From Candidatus Nanosynbacter sp. (GTDB taxonomy: Bacteria > Patescibacteriota > Saccharimonadia > Saccharimonadales > Saccharimonadaceae), in assembly GCA_015257605.1 (NCBI GenBank), contig JABZJV010000001.1, positions 1 to 48,256 on the forward strand: DNA of 48,256 nt, read 5' to 3'. Of this stretch, positions 4,234-26,552 are shown in pieces; position 1 is the stretch's first letter; every line of letters starts with the position of its first letter. The notes under the pieces are model-generated. The model saw only the letters and a list, made by a program, of their open reading frames with translations. It searched no databases and was not told the DNA's origin. The position numbers and the translations under genes are program-made.

Positions 4234-4701
4234 TTATAATAACTCATCCAGCACCGATTGCCAATCGGGAAACTGCGGACTGCCGAAGTGAATATGCCGG
4301 CCAGCAAACTCAGCAGCGCCTTTAGTTGTCCGGTCATCAATCAAAATATCACCGCGACTCAGCTGCTTGACCGACGAAAATACCACTTTGCGAAAGAAAA
4401 TATTTTCTTGGCCATCACCACCAAAATACTTCTTTACCCACGCCAATTTATCGCCTAGCGCTGTCGGATTCTCCCATGGCGATGACGACAGGATATACAA
4501 ATCATACTTTTCTTTCAGCTTGTCGACCACTTCAATTGCCCCCGGCATCGGATCCATCAGCGCAAAAACGCCCGGGATATTATCATACTCGCCCGCAAAC
4601 TTCTCGAGCAGCTCCGGCGGAATCTTCGTCAAAGCCGACTCAAAATCAACCAGCACGCCGTCCATATCGATATAGACAATCGGCTTCTTATTTTCGCACA
4701 T
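4234..4701 (-). CDS. 5'(3')-deoxyribonucleotidase (NT5C, HAD superfamily)
   Basis: YIDMDGVLVDF, PMPGAIE, YILSS, KLAWVKKYF, GDILIDD; likely start ATG 4701. Confidence 0.85.
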   Translation of the reverse strand: MCENKKPIVYIDMDGVLVDFESALTKIPPELLEKFAGEYDNIPGVFALMDPMPGAIEVVDKLKEKYDLYILSSSPWENPTALGDKLAWVKKYFGGDGQENIFFRKVVFSSVKQLSRGDILIDDRTTKGAAEFAGRHIHFGSPQFPDWQSVLDELL

Positions 4702-5296
4702 CTTTACCCCTACCAGTGAAGGATGAAAAATCACGATACACAGTACTTCCATCACCAGGTGCACTACCTTTATTTCGGTGAACAAAGCCCTGTTTACGAG
4801 CAATTTTCAAGTCGCCAAGTGTAGGGAATGTTGTCACTTCATTCCATTCGTTTGGCAAGCGACGTTTCGTGACAGCAAAGTCGCTGTCAACACCTCTAAT
4901 AACTACAGCTCTAATTATTTTTATGCCCATACGCCTCGCCAATGTTGTTCGATGCATACCGTCAACAAGCAGTAATCCTTCATGATCATCTTCCTCAATA
5001 ATAGGCGGGAGCATGACTCCGCCCTCCCCATTTTCTTCATCGATAATATCAATTCCACCAGTTCCCATGCACAGTGTATCTTCACCGTACGGCAAAACAA
5101 GCTCTCTTAAACCCTCTTGCTTGCGTACACCAGCGTCAATAACATACCGCTGCGTCGGCTGAAAATCACCTATGCAGACACCCTCAATTGAGATATCACT
5201 ACCAGCGTACGGTCGCACATCTTTATCGGCTAATGTCGGTGTCTGATACAGATTATCAATTAACCACCCTTGAGACTTAAATCCCTCTACTCGCAC
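4688..5296 (-). CDS. Hypothetical protein with ParB/sulfiredoxin-like motif
   Basis: PPII...LLLVDGMHR...IRAVV signature; GTG start overlaps the stop of the lepA C-terminal gene. Confidence 0.55.
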   Translation of the reverse strand: MRVEGFKSQGWLIDNLYQTPTLADKDVRPYAGSDISIEGVCIGDFQPTQRYVIDAGVRKQEGLRELVLPYGEDTLCMGTGGIDIIDEENGEGGVMLPPIIEEDDHEGLLLVDGMHRTTLARRMGIKIIRAVVIRGVDSDFAVTKRRLPNEWNEVTTFPTLGDLKIARKQGFVHRNKGSAPGDGSTVYRDFSSFTGRGKDVRK

Positions 5297-6255
5297 TAAT
5301 CTCTCCTTAGCATTATTGTAAATGCCTCGCTCGGAATGTCAACCTTGCCGAAGCGTTTCATGCGTTTTTTGCCGCGGGCTTGCTTGGCGAGGAGCTTCTT
5401 CTTGCGGCTGACGTCGCCGCCGTACAGATAGCCAGTGACGTCTTTACGGTAGGCACCGATGTTTTCTCGGGCGATAAACCTACCGCCAATCGCCGCCTGC
5501 AACGCCACTTCAAAGCTCTGGCGCGGCACCACCTCTTTGAGCTTTTTGACGATTTCGCGACCCAAGCCTGGCGCCTCAGAGCGGTGACACATCACACTCA
5601 GCGCATCGACCATTTCGCCCGCTACATAAAAATCCACTCGCACCAAATCTTCCGGCTGATAACCCGCTAGCTCATAATTAAACGAGCCGTAGCCACTGGT
5701 TACCGACTTCAGTTGATCATAAAAATCCGTCAACAGATTTGCCAGCGGTGCCGTAAAGGAAATGAGGGCGCGCTCATCGATGTAACTGAGATTTTTCTGC
5801 CGGCCGCGCTTGGCGACAATCAGCTGAATCACCGCACCGATATAATCTTGCGGCACCACAATTTCGCCGTCAATCCACGGCTCGCGAATTTCTTTGATCT
5901 GCGCTGGGTCAGGTAGTTCGCTGGCCGATTTGATATCCAACTCCTCACCGTTGGTCAAACTAACTTGATAATCCGTACTCGGATTGGTGACGATGAGATC
6001 CAGATTATACTCGCGCTCCAGCCGCTCGCGAATGATGTCCATGTGGAGCAAGCCGAGGAAACCAATCCGCACACCATAGCCCAACACCGGCGAATTCTCC
6101 GGCTCAAACTGCAGCGCCGAATCGCTCAGACTCAGCTTCTCGATTGCCTCTTTCAGGTCATTATAATCCTCGTTAGATACCGGAAAGAACCCCGCATAGA
6201 CGAAGGGCTTGACTTCTTTGTAGCCAGGGAGAGGCTGGATGGTGATATGAGACAT
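5296..6255 (-). CDS. lepA: Elongation factor 4 (LepA), C-terminal half (domains III, V, CTD)
   Basis: PLPGYKEVKPFVYAGFFP, GFLGLLHMDIIRERLEREY, GYGSFNYE, RKDVTGYLYGGDVSRKKKLL, GKKRMK; own TATAAT upstream; alternative start 6270. Confidence 0.93.
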   Translation of the reverse strand: MSHITIQPLPGYKEVKPFVYAGFFPVSNEDYNDLKEAIEKLSLSDSALQFEPENSPVLGYGVRIGFLGLLHMDIIRERLEREYNLDLIVTNPSTDYQVSLTNGEELDIKSASELPDPAQIKEIREPWIDGEIVVPQDYIGAVIQLIVAKRGRQKNLSYIDERALISFTAPLANLLTDFYDQLKSVTSGYGSFNYELAGYQPEDLVRVDFYVAGEMVDALSVMCHRSEAPGLGREIVKKLKEVVPRQSFEVALQAAIGGRFIARENIGAYRKDVTGYLYGGDVSRKKKLLAKQARGKKRMKRFGKVDIPSEAFTIMLRRD

Positions 6256-6325
6256 ATTAGTAAAGTGCATTATAACATTTTTGTCCGAAGACGTCGATTA
6301 AGCAACGTATTTTACAAAAACCACG

Positions 6326-7012
6326 CTAATTGATATACCGCTCAATACGCTCAGCCCGCAGCATTAGCACCTCAGTCAAACCTTGCAAATATGCTGTATA
6401 CTGCTCAACAGTCTGAGGTAGCGGTGACGATTGAAAATCATCAAAATCTGTTAGTATTTTAACTTGGTATTTATCATCAACAAAATCTTGCAACAAGAAA
6501 AAATCGACATAGTCCTGAAAATCACCAAACCACTCAAAAAAGTCACGATAACGATCAAAAACATTAGCGAGCGGGCTGTCCTTGCCTTGATACCAGCGGG
6601 CAATACATTCTAAAGTCAGGTCAAACCGATCACCAATTTTGCGGTGCCAACCTCTCGCACGATTGATGGTCTGCGTTCCGCCGCGTAGTTCGCTGGGGAA
6701 AATAATCTCTGAGCCAATGCGCCAATCAACATTATCTATTGCCATCAAAACATCTCGTGGTGTTTGCTCAACAATCAACTTATTACGTTTCCAAGTTTCA
6801 AAAGTAGCCACCATATTATCGCTCGAAACAGGAATCTGACACCGACCATCACTGGCTATCAAGTACGCCCCCTGATCCAACATTATCAGCTGACAACCAT
6901 CAGGCAGCGGCTTAGTCCACAATTCAGCATGATAACGCTTTAATGTCGAACTGTGCTGATCTGGATCTTTATTGTTAGCGTCTTGACGACAATCAAACCA
7001 AACATCAATCAT
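6326..7012 (-). CDS. Conserved hypothetical protein (DUF6994-like)
   Basis: KDPDQHSSTLKRYHAELWTKPLP, TINRARG..IGDRFDLTLECI, FGDFQDYVDFFLLQD; AAGGAG SD before ATG 7012; family name from memory. Confidence 0.6.
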   Translation of the reverse strand: MIDVWFDCRQDANNKDPDQHSSTLKRYHAELWTKPLPDGCQLIMLDQGAYLIASDGRCQIPVSSDNMVATFETWKRNKLIVEQTPRDVLMAIDNVDWRIGSEIIFPSELRGGTQTINRARGWHRKIGDRFDLTLECIARWYQGKDSPLANVFDRYRDFFEWFGDFQDYVDFFLLQDFVDDKYQVKILTDFDDFQSSPLPQTVEQYTAYLQGLTEVLMLRAERIERYIN

Positions 7013-7175
7013 TAGTGTCGCTCCTTTCTTGGTACTAATTTGCATATCGCATACAATATACAAATTAAAATACTCAATCCGCCGCAATAACGTCCCCAAC
7101 AGACCGCCGCTTGGAATAAGCCTGCCGCTCTCGCCATAACCGATACACAGCAAAATTGTTACTGCGAGAAAATAA

Positions 7176-9173
7176 CTAGTTTCTATCAATTTGTGTGATA
7201 GATAGCAGATACCCAAGAGCTTTTAGCTTCCTAGCTTGGTCTGGTCGGATATTTTTAACCCTCATGTCCGCATGCGGTACAATCTCATCTAACCGCTTGA
7301 GTTTTCCTGATTTTGTATCTATTACAGCATACAGCATTCGCTGAGCCTCTGGCAAGTTGGACAAATCTGCCTCAATAGGCAATTCATCATTATGCGGTCC
7401 AAATCGTTTCATGTATAGCTGCGAATCCAAACCCGCTAAATCCTGCAACAGGTGCGCAGTAGTATGATTCGGCGTACCGCTGTATGGCAAATACCAATAG
7501 CGATACATTTTCGTCCCTAATTCTGATATTATATCCGGACGTCTCTCGTCTTTGATTGCTTGATACTGATTCTCTAACTGCTCCGCAGTAGCTTTATTAT
7601 TTCGTGTTGCAATACCTATACGTACATAAGCTTGAGTGGTTGACTTCAAAAGTCCAACAGGTTTCCCAACGAAAGCAGCAAACCGAGATATTACATCGCC
7701 TCGAATACCAAGTGCATACGTAAAGGCGCCGTTTTCTTGATTCATAACATCAATAGTTATCGCGCTACCTTCAAAGGAAGTTCCCTCATATTCGTAGGGA
7801 GCATCTGGATATTCAGCGCCTTTTGGCATAAATGTTCTATATTCGCCTGGTCGTAGCTCTTTTGTCAGTCGATCCAACGGTCCAATTATATCTTCTTGAA
7901 GAATGTTACTGTCGCTTCGATAACCCAATGCATTAAAAGAAGACTCGCTGTTTTCACCGCCAATTGGACTGATAAAATACTTCTTCAAGTCGCTATATAA
8001 ATCCGCCTTACTGGTATATTTGACATACATCTGCCCTACTTCTATATCAAGGCAGGAGACATCGGCTTCACGAAGCAACCCAAGCACCGAAGGGTCGACT
8101 TCCTGCAACGCGCTTTCTTTCAAGCGCAAATCTATGAATGATTTTTTCCAATCTTCATACATCTCGTCATTTTCTTCCAGACCTGGATATTGACAGACGA
8201 GTTCTTCGTATGATTCAATATCTGGAACAATTACTGCTAAGTTATGGCGAATATAAGGATAGTTCTGCCACCACATTTCGCCGCCGCGCTCTTCTTTGCT
8301 GCGCTCTGCTAATTTTTTATGCAAGACCTCCGACAAAGCAAGGGCTGCACGATCATGAAGCTGCGGATCAGAACCTTCAATTGCTGTTGCTTTCAGATAC
8401 GCATCAGCGCAGCGGCTTTTGACGTTTTCTTTATATCTATCTGTATCTGGCACGTCTATCTCAAACTCTTTACGCACAATCTCGCCGAAACATTTATTTG
8501 GGTCAGAGGAGATAGCCGCAACGAACCCATCTAGCTGCTCATTAAACATACTCTCCCGTTTTCGTTCAGCCTCCCGATGCGCAATGTTCTCTTGTGTAGC
8601 CTCCATTTCTTGCCTCGTTTCCTCGGCTATTTGTGCTGTTCTCTCTTCTTCCTCATTAGCTGTTCTCCCCAGAACATACTGGGTCAATAATTCCAGCTTC
8701 TTTGAATCGCCCGGATTTTTTTCCTGACGATACGAACCGCCTAAACGCCCACATCTCTGCAGCAATGTATTTAGCTTGTCATCGCCCCACTCATCCGTTA
8801 ACCTTGCGGCTGCATCGCTATTTAAGAGCCACTCCATCTCCTCAGGAGTAGCCAGGTTCGCTATAACGTCAAAAATAACCAGCAGTCTCTCGCTTCTTTT
8901 TCGAGGCTTCCAGCCCTCCTCCGGATCTTCGTAATCATCCAAAGATACGCAAATAGCCTCAGCCATTTGTCCGGCTAAATCAAACTCGCCAGGTTTCTCT
9001 TCTCGCAGTCTTTCTGCAACTTGCATCATCTTTTTACCACTAGTAAAGGCTAGAAAACTCCCATTTCGTAGTATGCTTTCTAAATCTGAATCAAGAAGCG
9101 AATCGCCATCAGCGTGCGGCGTCTCTGCGCTGCTATCACCGCTACGCGGCAGGTTAGGAAATCTATCAATCAT
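7176..9173 (-). CDS. Hypothetical protein, 665 aa, acidic and helical
   Basis: Long ORF; TTGACA-17 nt-TAGCAT promoter-like motif upstream; no family recognised. Confidence 0.7.
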   Translation of the reverse strand: MIDRFPNLPRSGDSSAETPHADGDSLLDSDLESILRNGSFLAFTSGKKMMQVAERLREEKPGEFDLAGQMAEAICVSLDDYEDPEEGWKPRKRSERLLVIFDVIANLATPEEMEWLLNSDAAARLTDEWGDDKLNTLLQRCGRLGGSYRQEKNPGDSKKLELLTQYVLGRTANEEEERTAQIAEETRQEMEATQENIAHREAERKRESMFNEQLDGFVAAISSDPNKCFGEIVRKEFEIDVPDTDRYKENVKSRCADAYLKATAIEGSDPQLHDRAALALSEVLHKKLAERSKEERGGEMWWQNYPYIRHNLAVIVPDIESYEELVCQYPGLEENDEMYEDWKKSFIDLRLKESALQEVDPSVLGLLREADVSCLDIEVGQMYVKYTSKADLYSDLKKYFISPIGGENSESSFNALGYRSDSNILQEDIIGPLDRLTKELRPGEYRTFMPKGAEYPDAPYEYEGTSFEGSAITIDVMNQENGAFTYALGIRGDVISRFAAFVGKPVGLLKSTTQAYVRIGIATRNNKATAEQLENQYQAIKDERRPDIISELGTKMYRYWYLPYSGTPNHTTAHLLQDLAGLDSQLYMKRFGPHNDELPIEADLSNLPEAQRMLYAVIDTKSGKLKRLDEIVPHADMRVKNIRPDQARKLKALGYLLSITQIDRN

Positions 9174-9251
9174 CTTAGTTATAATGCTAATATTTCTTTG
9201 CTAAATTGTCAACATTAGTGCGATGATTTACCGCCACCAGCGACAGTCAAA

Positions 9252-10715
9252 CTACTTTAAGGCAGTTCCGCCAAGCTGCCCTTTGGCTCTAGCTCTCCGC
9301 TTTTCTAATAATCGTTCAACCTTAGCTGCAACCTGCCCGACTTCATCTTCGGAAAGATAGAATACTCCTCCTGCCTTAACTGGGATTAATTCAAGTTGCT
9401 CAATAGCATGCCAAGCATCCCCGTAAGATACGTCTTGTCTACCTCTACGCTGTTGATCTTCTCTTACGAACTTAGTAACAGGAACATAACCCTCTGGAAT
9501 AGGCTGACGGCTCTCTATAGCAGCGCGAATCTTTTCAGCTTCCGACGGAGAAAAAATAATAGGCAGTCCAGCTTCACCCAACAATCCAAGCTTCTCGGCC
9601 GTACGTCTTACAATATGCTTTGGCACACCTGTCTCATTCATAATATCTTGAACCCCAACAAAACCTTCTGGAATTGATCTTGTTCGCCTTCTTTTCTCGT
9701 CTACAATAATTCGGGCATCTTCTCCAGTAAAAGCAAATATTCGACGGTTTTTCTCGCTACGATATACGCCCATTGTTATTTTTCCTTTCTTAGCCAATTC
9801 TCTGGCAAGTCTTGAAATCATCGTTCCATCTTTTAAGCCTAATTCTTTTGCCATATCTTTAGTAGTAACATACCCATCCGGAACTAGAGGCAAATGTTTT
9901 GAACTTCTTGAACTTCTTAGATACCTCGTATCAACAGGCTTATCCAATTTCTGTTGGCTGAATCCACCTTTTAGCGCATTTACCAAATTGGCTGTAAAAT
10001 TCTTCTTGGTTAGAATTCGCGCACCTTGTTCTGGATTGTCCTTTATTAGCTTGCTCAGCTCCTCTTTCGTATAGTCCGTTAGCGGGCGTTTCGGCTCATT
10101 CTCCGACGGACGGTTAGCGCTAACTTGCTCGCGCACCCATTCGCCATTAAACACAAACGTAGCGTTGCCATATTCCTGGCAGACTAGAATAACTTTATCA
10201 ATTCCAGGCACGGTAACTTGATAGTACGGCTCTTCGCGCATCATATTCGGATTGACGCTTCCCCAAACGATAGACACCGCCTCAGAGTCGTCAGGATTTA
10301 TGTCAAAATCATTCATTAATACAAATAGCAGATTCTCTAACTTCGGCTGCTTGCCTTTTTTCTCCATTCCAGTACCGCTGCCTGTCGCCTGCGGAACAGG
10401 CGCGCTGTCTGACGGCACGAATACATCGCTGGCTTCGTTCGCCTGCGCAATCACCTGACCAATTACCGCAAATTAGCTAGCTTTACCCTCCAAATGCCTG
10501 AGAATGCCTTCCACATCCTCCAGTCCAAAATATTCAAGCGCCGCGTCCTCATGTTCTTTTCCATTGGCCTCTCCAAGCTGCTGCCACTCAGCACCCGGCT
10601 GGGCGTCGTATTCGGCAACCACATCTTCGACCAGATTAATAACCGCGCCCAGCGCGTCATCGACATACGTGTCCGTATTTTCCAGCGTTAACGGCCTGTC
10701 GATCACTTCAGACAA
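9252..10715 (-). pseudogene. Hypothetical protein with tandem HTH-like repeats, interrupted by an in-frame TAA (10473-10475)
   Basis: ORFs 10473..10715 and 9252..10454 are in frame (EGKAS*FAVIGQVIAQ); three (V/I)P(D/E)G(Y/F)V-initiated repeats. Confidence 0.55.
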
Positions 10716-10825
10716 TCGATTCTTAAAAGTTTCTTTCTGGTTAATATAATGTCAATAATAAATTGTCGCGTTTCTTACGCTTTTATTTTATTGATTACAT
10801 CTTGAAAGGAGTATAGCAACTTATT

Positions 10826-11296
10826 CTACAACTGCTCAAAAATCTTATGAGCTTGATTCTTGCCAATAGTCTGAATCAATTCAGAGTAGCCCATCCACCG
10901 CCCGCGTTTAGTTTTGTCGCGACGATAATCCTTCTCATCGGTGATATCACCCTTAACTATCGCATCAACATTATGCCAAGTAATCCAAGGTGTGTCATCG
11001 CTCAAAAAGCTATAATCTAAATGAACATAATTTTCGTTGACTAGTTTATAGCCTGACGATGAAAATCCGCGTGCATACAACTCGCGGAGAATAGCGTCTG
11101 CTAGCTCGGCAAAACTGTCAACCGTAACACACAAAAAGTCATCATATTCCTCACCGAGTTCGTATGATCGTCCATTTATAAAAGCACTATACGAATCATC
11201 ATCGACAACTTTTTCATCCAACCACACGTGGCGGTCGCGTGCTATCGGAATCACCCGGCAGCTAATTTTCTCTGTAAAATTTTTGAAGTTATTCAT
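10826..11296 (-). CDS. Hypothetical protein
   Basis: 156-aa ATG-initiated ORF, co-oriented with neighbours. Confidence 0.6.
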   Translation of the reverse strand: MNNFKNFTEKISCRVIPIARDRHVWLDEKVVDDDSYSAFINGRSYELGEEYDDFLCVTVDSFAELADAILRELYARGFSSSGYKLVNENYVHLDYSFLSDDTPWITWHNVDAIVKGDITDEKDYRRDKTKRGRWMGYSELIQTIGKNQAHKIFEQL

Positions 11297-11315
11297 TCTG
11301 TATCCAATTTCCGCC

Positions 11316-11954
11316 TCATGCGCTTTGCGTATCTATATACGATGCGCTATTTAATATTTCTTCAAATACTTTACTATTTTGTTTCCAATATTCATTGTAA
11401 GAGAATACCGATATGTAACGAAGACATCCGTCTTCGCGGCCAACAGCTAAGCGTGTTACCATTTTAGTATTTTCAGGTCGAGAACCGCAACTTGATGTAA
11501 TTCTGACAATACCAACTAAACCATTTTGTTCCAAAGTATCGTCCTTGATATCGACAGTCGCTTGACAATTTTCCAATCCCTTAATAGTAAAGAATCTTTT
11601 CGCGTCTTCGCGCAACTCTTTGCTATCATAAGCCATTTTGCGCACTAATTCATAAGCTTCATCAGGCGCAGCCGGTAACACCAACCGCTCCGAATCCTGA
11701 GTCACGCCAACACCGCTAATTGACTTATTATCCTTGCCCAGTTTATCGCCGTAACCTTCAGTTTTACCATTTTTTACATCAATCCTTTGCCACTGCTTTG
11801 GTATTAGAAAACGGGTTTTCTGAGTTCTTGCTTCAACCAAATTTTTACTTTTCAGATAGACTGGCACTTCATGCAGCAAATAATCATACGAAGTATAAGC
11901 GCTTACACTGAAACACACTAAAGCTAAGATTAATTTGAGTATTTTTGTTTTCAT
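11316..11954 (-). CDS. Secreted or membrane-anchored hypothetical protein
   Basis: N-terminal hydrophobic segment (MKTKILKLILALVCFSVSA); 212 aa. Confidence 0.65.
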   Translation of the reverse strand: MKTKILKLILALVCFSVSAYTSYDYLLHEVPVYLKSKNLVEARTQKTRFLIPKQWQRIDVKNGKTEGYGDKLGKDNKSISGVGVTQDSERLVLPAAPDEAYELVRKMAYDSKELREDAKRFFTIKGLENCQATVDIKDDTLEQNGLVGIVRITSSCGSRPENTKMVTRLAVGREDGCLRYISVFSYNEYWKQNSKVFEEILNSASYIDTQSA

Positions 11955-11982
11955 TTGTACATTTTAATAATAGCACACGTTC

Positions 11983-12590
11983 CTACATTTCTACATCCGG
12001 CAAGTCCTTCAATTTCTTGCCATCAAAACAAAAGTAGGCTGCACCCTGGTACGCGCCGCTATCATTAACTTGATTCCTGTCCTCAAATATTTTTCGCACC
12101 AGCGGCGACAAAAACCACCTCTGCCCGCCATATTCAACTTCGCGCTCGCCAACAATTTTTGCTACAATTGTTTTATCTTTGAGAAAGACAACCTCATCGC
12201 CATTTTTGAGACCTTTCCGGTAAAAGCTAAACTTTTGATTACTGTTTTGGCTTTGGTGATTTTATCAAATTCCGCTTCTTTATTTTTCTGCTCCGGAAAG
12301 ACCACCTCGCCCTCAAACGACAGCAACAGCTGCTGTACCAAATCATAATCAAGCGCAAGAAGCTCGCTACTACCGACTCGATGCTTGGCAAATATTTCGT
12401 GCAGTAATGTTTCCTTTTCGGAATAATCAGCCACCTCGATCGCAAACAACCGCTTCAAACCAACCACATTGTAGTAGCCGTTCGCCTCGAGAAAGCGCAT
12501 CCGCTCTGGGTACTGCTTGGTTTGTGTCTTGCCGATTTTGATAAGACCTGACACTGCAGTGGTCATGACGTAGATGATACCTTTGCTCAC
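11983..12590 (-). pseudogene. GIY-YIG/T5orf172-like nuclease, frameshifted near 12245
   Basis: GIIYVMT...LIKIGKT...RM...E motifs; a second frame continues FSFYRKGLKNGDEVVF...GAYQGAAYFCFDGKKL to TAG at 11983. Confidence 0.65.
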
Positions 12591-12600
12591 TTCTAGCCTC

Positions 12601-13674
12601 CTATTTGGTCTCTTTCGTGAAGTACTTTTTCAGCGTTACCGTATCACCCACCCGTGCCTCACGCGTGGTTTTGAGGTTGGTGACGATGTAGCCAATTTCA
12701 CCGGTATCCAGCGACGGGTCGGGGATCATGCCGGGGCTGAGGTGACCGACTTCTAACGCCAAACCATTAGCACCGGTCGCCATCATGTGAATAGCTTCAC
12801 CTTTTTTAATCTGGCCGTCAACCATTCGCACGTACAAAATCACACCACGATAATCATCATAATAACTATCAAAAATCAGCGCCCGTGTTGGGTCATCTGG
12901 CTGACCAATTGGTGCTGGAATTCGTTCAACAATCGTCGCCAAAACTTGATCAACATTCTGCCCGGTTTTAGCAGAAATATGAATAATCTCGCTCTCATCG
13001 CAGCCCAGCAGATTGATCACCTGCTTGGATACTCGCGGCACATCAGCGGCTGGCAAATCAACCTTGTTGAGTACTGGAATAATTGTGAGGTCCTGCTCCA
13101 TCGCCAAGTACACATTCGCCAGCGTCTGCGCCTGAATACCTTGGCTGGCATCAACCACCAACACCGCACCCTCGCAGGCTTGCAAACTACGCGACACCTC
13201 ATAACTAAAATCAACGTGGCCAGGTGTGTCGATAAGGTTGAGGTCGTAGACAGTTGACTGCTCCAGCCCATTCACGCCAACATCTGCACAAGCCCGAGAA
13301 TCAGACTGCGCTAAGCGGGTGGCAGTCGATGGGGTAGCGCCCGCTTCTGAAGAAATCTCCGATTTTTCAGAAGAAGGGGCGGATCGACTGACAGGACCCG
13401 CGTCTAGCGACCGACGTGAAGACTCTGCAAGATTCTTCGACGATGGAAACGGTGATGCGCCACTCGCTTCCGCCTCCTGATATTCATATTTCATCCGCAC
13501 CGGCGCGAGCTTAATAGTGATGCCTTTCTCACGTTCCAAATCCATACTATCCAGCAGCTGCGATTTCATCTCGCGCTTCTCCACCGTCCCCGTCATCTCC
13601 ATCATCCTATCCGCCAGCGTCGATTTGCCGTGATCAATATGAGCGATGATACAAAAATTGCGGATATGTTCCAC
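12601..13674 (-). CDS. lepA: Elongation factor 4 (LepA), N-terminal half (G domain + domain II) with a long in-frame insertion
   Basis: [70 protein letters not shown] then stop. Confidence 0.95.
13297..13436. repeat. Long nested imperfect palindrome inside the lepA coding sequence
   Basis: Arms CGCTA/TAGCG, GCGGGT/ACCCGC, CAGTCGAT/ATCGACTG, CGCCC/GGGCG, CTTCTGAA(G)AAATC/GATTTTTCAGAAG around loop 13358-13360; outer AGAATC/GATTCT. Confidence 0.85.
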
Positions 13675-13675
13675 T

Positions 13676-15313
13676 CTAACGCCTCACTCTGCCGAATAGC
13701 AGCTGTCGTAATTTCGCAACAATCGGATCCGCCTCTTCAAGCTTAAATACTTTGCTTAAAGCTATATATACCGCAAAACTCACCACCACAATAACAGTAA
13801 ACTTCGGGAAAACCGCCATAAAATTCATATCACGCGACTGCAGCTGTAACATCTGTACTACAAAATAAGTCACCACACCCATAATTGCACTAGCAATCAT
13901 CATAGTAATAATACTGCGCAGTGTCTTGCGATTAAAAATACCTGGTGTACGTACGTGTAATATAGTCAGCAAAATCGCAATCTCTACCACTGAAACAATC
14001 GATTGCGCCCAAGCCAAACCAAACACTCCCCAGCCGAACAGCTGCGTGAAAATTATTGCCAATACAATATTCAACGATATCGTCGCTATCGAAATATACA
14101 GAGGTGTTCGCGTGTCTTGCTGCGCGTAGAACGTTCGCGCCATGATGTGATAAAGCGTCCGGAAGAATATCGATATCACCAACGCGCCGAGAACACTAGC
14201 AATCGCCGGCTGCCCGCCATTCTTGATAAACGCCACCACATAACCACGCGCGAAGAAAGTAATCACAGCAATCGGCAAAGCCAGCCAGACAATCCAGCGG
14301 AAAACCGAGCGCAACTCTTTCTTGAAGAGGTCAACTCGCCCTTCCGCTAGCCGTTCAGTCATCCGCGGAAAAGCCGCATTGCTAATAGCTACGCCAACTA
14401 GATTCACTGGCATCAAACTCAAGCTTGACGCCTGCTGGTAAACACGCATAATTCCGTCGCCCATTCGTGACGCTAAATTAATTTCAACAATTCCATTAAA
14501 ATAATCAATCCCTTGATCAATTGAGCGCGGCGGTAGAAGTTTCAAGACTTGACGAAAACCTTTGTTGCGCCAAGAAATCACCGGACGATAGTCAAAGTTT
14601 ACGCCGACCAGACCAATTGAACTAACCACTAGCTGCAGAATTGCCCCTAGCACCACACCAAGCGCCACGCCCATAATGCCGCCTTCAAATATCTGCCAAC
14701 CAAAGATATTAATGCCATTAGTGAAATATTTGGCGCCAACGACGATGCCTAGATTATAAATGGTCGGTGCTAGCGCCAAAAAAGTAAACCGGCCGATCGC
14801 TTGCTGCATGCTCGACACTACCGTCGCAATCGCGAACAAAAACGGATTGACGGCAATTATACGCATCATACTCACCGCCAAAGCATGTCCTTGTTCGCCA
14901 AAGCCCGGGCCAACAACATAGCGCACTAGCGGGTCGGCAAAGATGATAATTAGCACGCTAGTGATTAACGTCAATACCGCAAAGAGATTCAGTAAGCTTG
15001 AACTCAGCTCCCACGCCGATCGCTTATTGCCGCTCGCCAAACGCTGATTAAACACTGGGATAAACGATACGCTCAAAGCGCCCGACACTAGCAGGAAATA
15101 CATAAAATCCGGCACGGTAAACGCCGCTACGTAGGCATCAGCACCTACTTTATAAGTGTCTAGGTACATGCCATTAATTAAACGATCGCGGTAAATCCCC
15201 AGCAAGCTTGACAGCATTGTCGATCCAGACAGCAGAATTGCCGCCCACTGTACTGACAATTTGCTATTCGCTTTCGCAACAACCGACCGTACTCGACTTC
15301 CTCGCCCCGCCAT
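13676..15313 (-). CDS. murJ: Lipid II flippase MurJ (MviN)
   Basis: [42 protein letters not shown]; many TM helices. Confidence 0.95.
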
Positions 15314-26409: not shown

Positions 26410-26552
26410 ATACGACCTAATCCGCCCTCGGCGGTATGGTTGTTTGAAAATCCATTAGGAATATAAAGCTCGTCGTCAGAGCACTATTCCTAGTGGTCGG
26501 TACTGGAAACGGTATCGGGTAGCCTTGGCTATCACTGGCGGCGAGCTTTTTA
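26410..26552 (+). ncRNA. Candidate structured RNA (5' hairpin plus four-way junction ending in a U tract)
   Basis: TGATATAAT upstream; closing stem 26465-26479/26535-26549 with G-U pairs enclosing three hairpins; family not recognised. Confidence 0.55.

Follow-up and report, generated by a model that had tools for sequence, protein, structure and literature searches.

The window analysed here is a 48,256-nt stretch of Candidatus Nanosynbacter sp. (assembly GCA_015257605.1, contig JABZJV010000001.1), in which the gene for the translational GTPase EF4 (LepA) lies as two separate open reading frames (ORFs) on the reverse strand. The upstream half, lepA-N (12601..13674; 357 aa by ORF translation), encodes the EF4 G domain and domain II (Pfam GTP_EFTU and D2). 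Its GTG start codon stands one base past the stop codon of murJ (13676..15313, reverse strand), the usual upstream neighbour in the order ftsH-murJ-lepA-N. [quoted passage not shown] An initial annotation, made from the letters alone, had described two ORFs 6.3 kb apart, broken in the linker between domains II and III with essentially nothing lost. The ORF coordinates and translations bear out both frames and their termini, and the distance between the halves is 6,345 bp. Aligned with solved EF4, the N piece ends at residue 283-285 while the C piece sets in at residue 283-287, so that no EF4 sequence is missing at the cut, which falls in the domain II/III hinge. The G1-G5 motifs and the catalytic histidine, followed by domain II, were found in lepA-N; lepA-C carries the LepA-specific CTD and, as in EF4, has no domain IV. 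Neither half reaches the TIGR01393 cut-off of 533.9 bits (437 for lepA-N, 312 + 104 for lepA-C). An AlphaFold2 (AF2) model of lepA-N (predicted local distance difference test, pLDDT, 79.9) returned LepA structures as its top Foldseek matches. No further lepA was found in the window's assembly, which is 75% complete in 76 contigs.

Each half has a new end at the cut. lepA-N closes with a C-terminal tail typical of split alleles (12601..12633, reverse strand), predicted by AF2 to be helical at residues 350-356, and the N-terminus of lepA-C reads MSHITIQPLPGYKEVKPFVYAG, its new head MSHITIQ-PLPGYKE standing at the start of 5296..6255. Upstream of lepA-C, a pattern match identified a putative sigma70-type promoter with an extended -10 element (6269..6297, reverse strand). 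Its sequence, TCGACG-17-TGnTATAAT (6297-6269), agrees with the consensus at 10 of 12 positions, so the TATAAT that the initial annotation had assigned to the C half is real; it lies 13 nt from the ATG, which has no Shine-Dalgarno sequence. The G domain of lepA-N also contains an in-frame 77-aa insertion in a surface loop (about 13255..13485, reverse strand). The insertion is predicted to be disordered, with pLDDT below 50 at residues 83-133 of the AF2 model, and its length varies from 0 to 77 aa across relatives. It is present in a single copy in the genome, and a reading of it as a genome repeat was therefore rejected. It contains a hairpin (z -2.5), and parts of it are common to the distant lineages G062 and G073.

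The DNA between the halves holds six co-oriented cargo genes, all on the reverse strand, two of which are broken. The one next to lepA-N is a T5orf172/GIY-YIG-like gene (11986..12590) of the PADLOC candidate defence family PDC-S57, frameshifted near 12255 so that 142 aa are left of the 202 aa seen in relatives. It is followed by two intact genes, one for a 212-aa protein whose N-terminus is hydrophobic and which gave a weak PsbP-like match (11316..11954) and one for a 156-aa protein of unknown family (10826..11296), and then by an unknown gene of about 490 aa (9252..10715), which an in-frame stop near 10473 divides into 80 + 400 aa as against 490 aa. A gene for a 665-aa protein of unknown family (7176..9173) and one for a 228-aa DUF6994 protein (6326..7012) complete the series. 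The earlier statement that the neighbouring accessory genes are decaying thus stands for two of the six and fails for the other four, which are full length. Across 49 such gaps, 247 ORFs were called in 54 families, 218 of them co-oriented; the short calls on the opposite strand are probably spurious. The families include NUDIX, nitroreductase, SDR, GrpB, methyltransferase, ABC transporter and Fic proteins as well as two PADLOC candidate defence families, and no recombinase was found among the 30 cargo representatives scanned. The gap is a slot with a fast turnover of cargo. Three genomes (G016, locus L050, 2763-5612; also G011 and G032) have a single cargo gene, which encodes a 950-aa fusion of a poly(A) polymerase/CCA-type head with a Schlafen AlbA_2 domain.

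We surveyed lepA in 105 genomes of the genus: 82 carried it in pieces only, including four single-contig genomes, 21 gave a continuous match across the junction, and 2 had no match at 1e-60. In 24 genomes of other families lepA was intact in 22 and lay on broken contigs in 2, and six further split loci were found among 63 more distant loci. The DNA was read for 54 of the 82 pieces-only genomes, giving C starts in 54 and N ends in 51, and the cut position was identical in every one, so that close relatives share the split point of the window. The named records among the closest relatives of the C half were Saccharibacteria, including Ca. Nanosynbacter. Apparent fusions of 880-922 aa in G036 and G077 were rejected, both genomes being split. 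For the cultured strain Southlakia epibionticum ML1, assembled from long reads, SEML1_0727 (918 bp, G domain and domain II) and SEML1_0725 (960 bp, domains III and V and CTD) are given in Table S1 of PMC10633639 with one unrelated gene between them, and an independent sequencing run, X1, yielded one 5,366-nt contig that reads from lepA-C through different cargo into lepA-N. These two layouts agree and rule out a misassembly. Split lepA is a trait of the lineage, neither a misassembly nor a pseudogene. The word 'lepA' does not occur in the main text of PMC10633639, and term searches of the text of PMC12641178, PMC4342817, PMC10633639, PMC7427843 and bioRxiv 2022.03.25.485537 returned no description of the split; searches of the open-access literature also found none. 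Some lepA loci showed other peculiarities. One assembly with 4% contamination (G004) holds two divergent intact copies (L071, L075). Further downstream, the 3' end of lepA is found a second time at L042 in G019 (109 codons) and at L070 in G013 and L072 in G014 (19 codons each), resembling integration or recombination scars. The lepA of G019 groups with the oral clade; its rpoB does not.

Both halves are conserved wherever they were read. The catalytic DTPGH is present in 50 of 51 N halves, the sole miss being cut by a contig end, and the G motifs are retained in 48-51 of 51, with two misses contig-cut and one a substitution adjoining G1; the motifs of the C half (CTD) are found in 53-54 of 54. 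The cores, 260 (N) and 310 (C) codons, align without gaps. Among split genomes, the ratio of nonsynonymous to synonymous divergence (dN/dS) was 0.035 for the N core (310 pairs) and 0.024 for the C core (431 pairs). At a synonymous divergence (dS) of 1-3, the split values were 0.048 (N) and 0.033 (C), and the intact values 0.047 (N, 11 pairs) and 0.039 (C, 9 pairs). Selection on either half is thus not relaxed and resembles that on intact lepA. Judged by selection, both halves should be functional. The view of the initial annotation, that this is a functional split EF4 and not a pseudogene, is supported by the shared cut in relatives, the purifying dN/dS and the long-read layout.

The gaps, measured from the N stop codon to LPGY, range from 11 to 8,637 nt (431-434 nt in G062) and fall into all three reading frames (24, 19 and 15 of 58 loci). 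In G075 (L156), which has no cargo, the N stop and the C start overlap as ATGA. The 40 nt upstream of the C starts comprise 29 unrelated types. Of the 29, 15 have an exact TATAAT no more than 22 nt ahead of the C start, compared with a background of 0.9%, and in most of the other types a purine-rich stretch resembling a Shine-Dalgarno sequence, or an overlap of stop and start, is seen. In the genome of the window, the commonest spacing of TATAAT is 6-7 nt before an ATG, so near-leaderless starts would be normal there, which suggests widespread leaderless mRNAs. The DNA past the N stop and before the C start is unrelated between types. No Rfam intron was found in the window gap or at 7 other loci, no intein domain at the cut ends, and no repeat of the att type pairing the two junctions; 59 of 60 N halves have 8-13 residues after GDT, which leaves no room for an intein. 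Because the gaps fall into all frames and bear no intron, intein or att signature, the lepA halves are predicted to be made as two separately translated chains.

On the rpoB and lepA trees, one large oral clade is wholly split, and other split genomes are scattered among intact ones. A single split clade was rejected by the approximately unbiased (AU) test for rpoB (p 7e-8, 8 changes; 34 rows, with 20 near-duplicate or partial rows dropped) and for lepA (p 0.006, 7 changes; 39 rows), and a 110-row tree built without the junction region required 13 changes. Nevertheless the new termini are shared: 55 of the 60 split rows have the N-half tail VT[LM]x[KRES]Y, as does 1 of the 91 intact rows, and the C-half head [VI][QE]PL is common to 60 of 65 split rows. 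Glutamate at C+5 marks 12 of 13 split and 0 of 19 intact rows within the genus, and less cleanly 58 of 65 and 7 of 91 in the wider set. In each of the two 30-codon windows at the junction, 10 of 14 scattered split lineages had their nearest neighbour in a further split lineage; the same count in 16 other windows averaged 4.1 (range 1-9). The split G077, for example, is nearest to the intact G013 in all but the junction windows. Within three clades, dS was higher in lepA than in rpoB in 45 of 45 pairs (N) and 41 of 45 pairs (C), as would be expected for the flanks of an often-exchanged region. Saccharibacteria are naturally competent, with homology arms as short as 221 bp (PMC10633639). The trees and the local sequence patch point to lateral exchange of the junction, and we read these data as one junction that probably spread by recombination; conversion from split to intact or the reverse would both fit. 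The only intact lepA with a split-type tail, that of G074 (L188), carries it in the linker TLRSYV...VDVKSLPGY and is possibly a re-fusion.

A second fission was found in another Saccharibacteria lineage, the relatives of G129, where lepA is cut at the G domain/domain II boundary (loci L111, L107 and L108 in G129-G131; L256, L259 and L277-L300). All 27 junctions read, out of 28, have this cut: 17 have a TAATG overlap, 2 an in-frame stop followed by a start, 1 a 2-nt spacer and 7 one cargo gene. A reading of this split as a -1 frameshift was rejected, since 7 of the 27 have a whole gene inserted and 2 have the in-frame stop and start. The dN/dS of the pieces is 0.023 each. Five of the seven cargo genes (L287, L289, L290, L292 and L300) are T5orf172/PDC-S57 homologues of the window gene, at 37-46% identity. 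At each of the two independent split sites, a gene of this kind can come immediately behind the first piece, perhaps by coincidence or through an insertion preference.

Two other features of the window may be recorded. A gene with a ParB-CE domain (4688-5296, reverse strand) follows lepA-C, its GTG start overlapping the lepA-C stop codon, and a match to the Rfam LOOT RNA lies at 26414-26533 on the forward strand (65.1 bits against a cut-off of 46.4).

Taken together, we consider it probable that EF4 here consists of two polypeptides acting as one factor, and that the junction arose once and has been exchanged by recombination. lepA-N would be read from the ftsH-murJ operon, and lepA-C would be started from a nearby -10 box where the gap is long, and by a Shine-Dalgarno sequence or a stop/start overlap where it is short. 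EF-G has a flexible loop between its two rigid units, I-II and III-V, and in EF-G as in EF4 the G domain is in contact with domain V (PMC5207388). Because the cut falls in such a hinge between rigid units and domain V contacts the G domain, the halves may dock without the linker, either off or on the ribosome. The two chains would associate and act jointly on the ribosome. A single split junction with short new tails would have arisen once, and homologous recombination in these naturally competent bacteria would then have swapped the junction and its cargo, both inside a lineage and from one lineage to another, since the conserved halves flank the cargo like homology arms. More tentatively, and with somewhat less than even confidence, we propose that EF4 as a non-covalent heterodimer was reached twice in Saccharibacteria, at different domain boundaries, and that the II/III split is a mobile allele whose tails dock the halves and by which transformation converts an intact lepA into a landing pad for cargo.

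Several observations weigh against this explanation. The deep nodes of the trees are poorly supported, and the trees were quick ones under non-mixture models; a few intact rows in the tail and window comparisons could stand for a single genome entered twice. As a signal the junction patch is modest, since the count in one of the other windows rose to 9 of 14, and a similar patch could result from constraint on the new termini. The dN/dS values were calculated by the Nei-Gojobori method from sequence pairs that, like the kin they compare, are not independent. Published transposon sequencing (Tn-seq) data call both halves non-essential. The parallel fall in their reads (T2/T0 0.67 and 0.70, as compared with a rise to 1.37 for the gene between them) speaks for joint action, but an equally large fall is seen in 22 of 68 comparable genes (drawn from 3 of the 15 parts of the published table), and the signal is weak. 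In RNA sequencing of TM7x (PMC10768705), a 930-bp 'LepA' that comes right after murJ, and by its position is the N half, was unchanged in expression, and no locus for the C half appears in the portion examined of that table.

Other explanations account for parts of the data. The halves might be useful separately, lepA-N as a ribosome-linked GTPase and lepA-C as a GTP-independent factor binding the A site or a subunit. Separate promoters would permit separate control, one half occurs alone at E<=1e-60 in three well-assembled genomes (G095, G100 and G114), and the CTD of E. coli EF4 is dispensable for nucleotide binding, intrinsic GTPase activity and ribosome binding (PMC4339808). The same work, however, found the CTD to be required for efficient ribosome-stimulated GTPase activity, and neither half has drifted from intact EF4. 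The lineage cut at G/II also retains both pieces, which fits re-assembly better than two new jobs, and the Tn-seq trends of the halves run weakly in parallel; we regard separate roles as unlikely. Only slightly less credit is due to the proposal that the T5orf172/GIY-YIG homing-endonuclease-like gene caused and drives the split, like mobE in nrdA of phage Aeh1. This gene is the first cargo here and in 13 other gaps, its homologues fill five of the seven cargo-bearing G/II gaps, and a patch centred on the junction resembles co-conversion. Yet a T5orf172-like gene is present in only 15 of 49 gaps and lacking in all nine scattered short-gap lineages examined; homologues of about 50% identity occur in 28 genomes, and in every case that allowed the two positions to be compared they stood apart from lepA. 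Its best family match, PDC-S57, is a candidate anti-phage gene, and the copy in the window is frameshifted. The gene as the cause of the II/III split is thus not supported.

Bacteria of the Candidate Phyla Radiation carry introns, which would favour a restored single chain, whether the RNA were spliced, the protein trans-spliced, the gap bypassed by the ribosome or the intervening DNA excised. Such a restoration is very improbable in view of the gaps in all three frames and of searches that found no Rfam intron in the window gap and 7 other loci, no intein, no junction repeat and no recombinase among 30 cargo representatives; nor did the contigs of 4 sequencing runs, whose status as RNA is a guess, contain a joint fusing the halves. 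A recent pseudogene or a misassembly could be imagined for a non-essential gene in an assembly of 76 contigs and 75% completeness, but it has next to no standing against the pieces found throughout the genus, the dN/dS, the X1 contig and the long-read ML1 assembly, which refute it. A two-polypeptide EF4 thus remains our preferred reading.

Few bacterial proteins are as conserved as EF4, whose role is still debated (PMC4342817). In models of translational GTPases, the nucleotide state is taken to reach domains III-V through a covalent hinge. If cultured, transformable strains make EF4 as two chains, the GTPase and the module that reaches into the ribosome could be deleted, titrated and swapped separately. 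The split gene would also represent a gene fission that spreads sideways and makes a slot for accessory genes inside a core gene. Annotation based on length under-calls lepA here, and in a published table one half is labelled only 'GTP-binding protein'.

Compared with canonical EF4/LepA (TIGR01393; PDB 3CB4, 2YWE, 5IMQ and 4W2E), the two halves tile the chain with all five domains and the motifs, and differ in being encoded by two genes that start separately, have new tails and a variable G-domain insertion, and enclose a cargo slot. In replacement islands flanked by core genes, recombination in the conserved flanks swaps the cargo, and synonymous divergence there is raised; in the present case the flanks are the halves of one ancestral gene. 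PMC2677866 describes fractured genes in which a free-standing endonuclease accompanies split inteins; there too a nuclease-like gene separates the two parts of a conserved gene, but trans-splicing of that kind is not expected here because there are no intein halves. The closest likeness in arrangement may be sought in nrdA-a/mobE/nrdA-b of phage Aeh1, where, as described in PMC3045599, inserted DNA split a continuous gene without splicing and left short new tails. Split lepA differs from it in having highly variable cargo without a fixed endonuclease, and in being a cellular translation factor, cut in an inter-domain hinge and not in the active site, in dozens of species.

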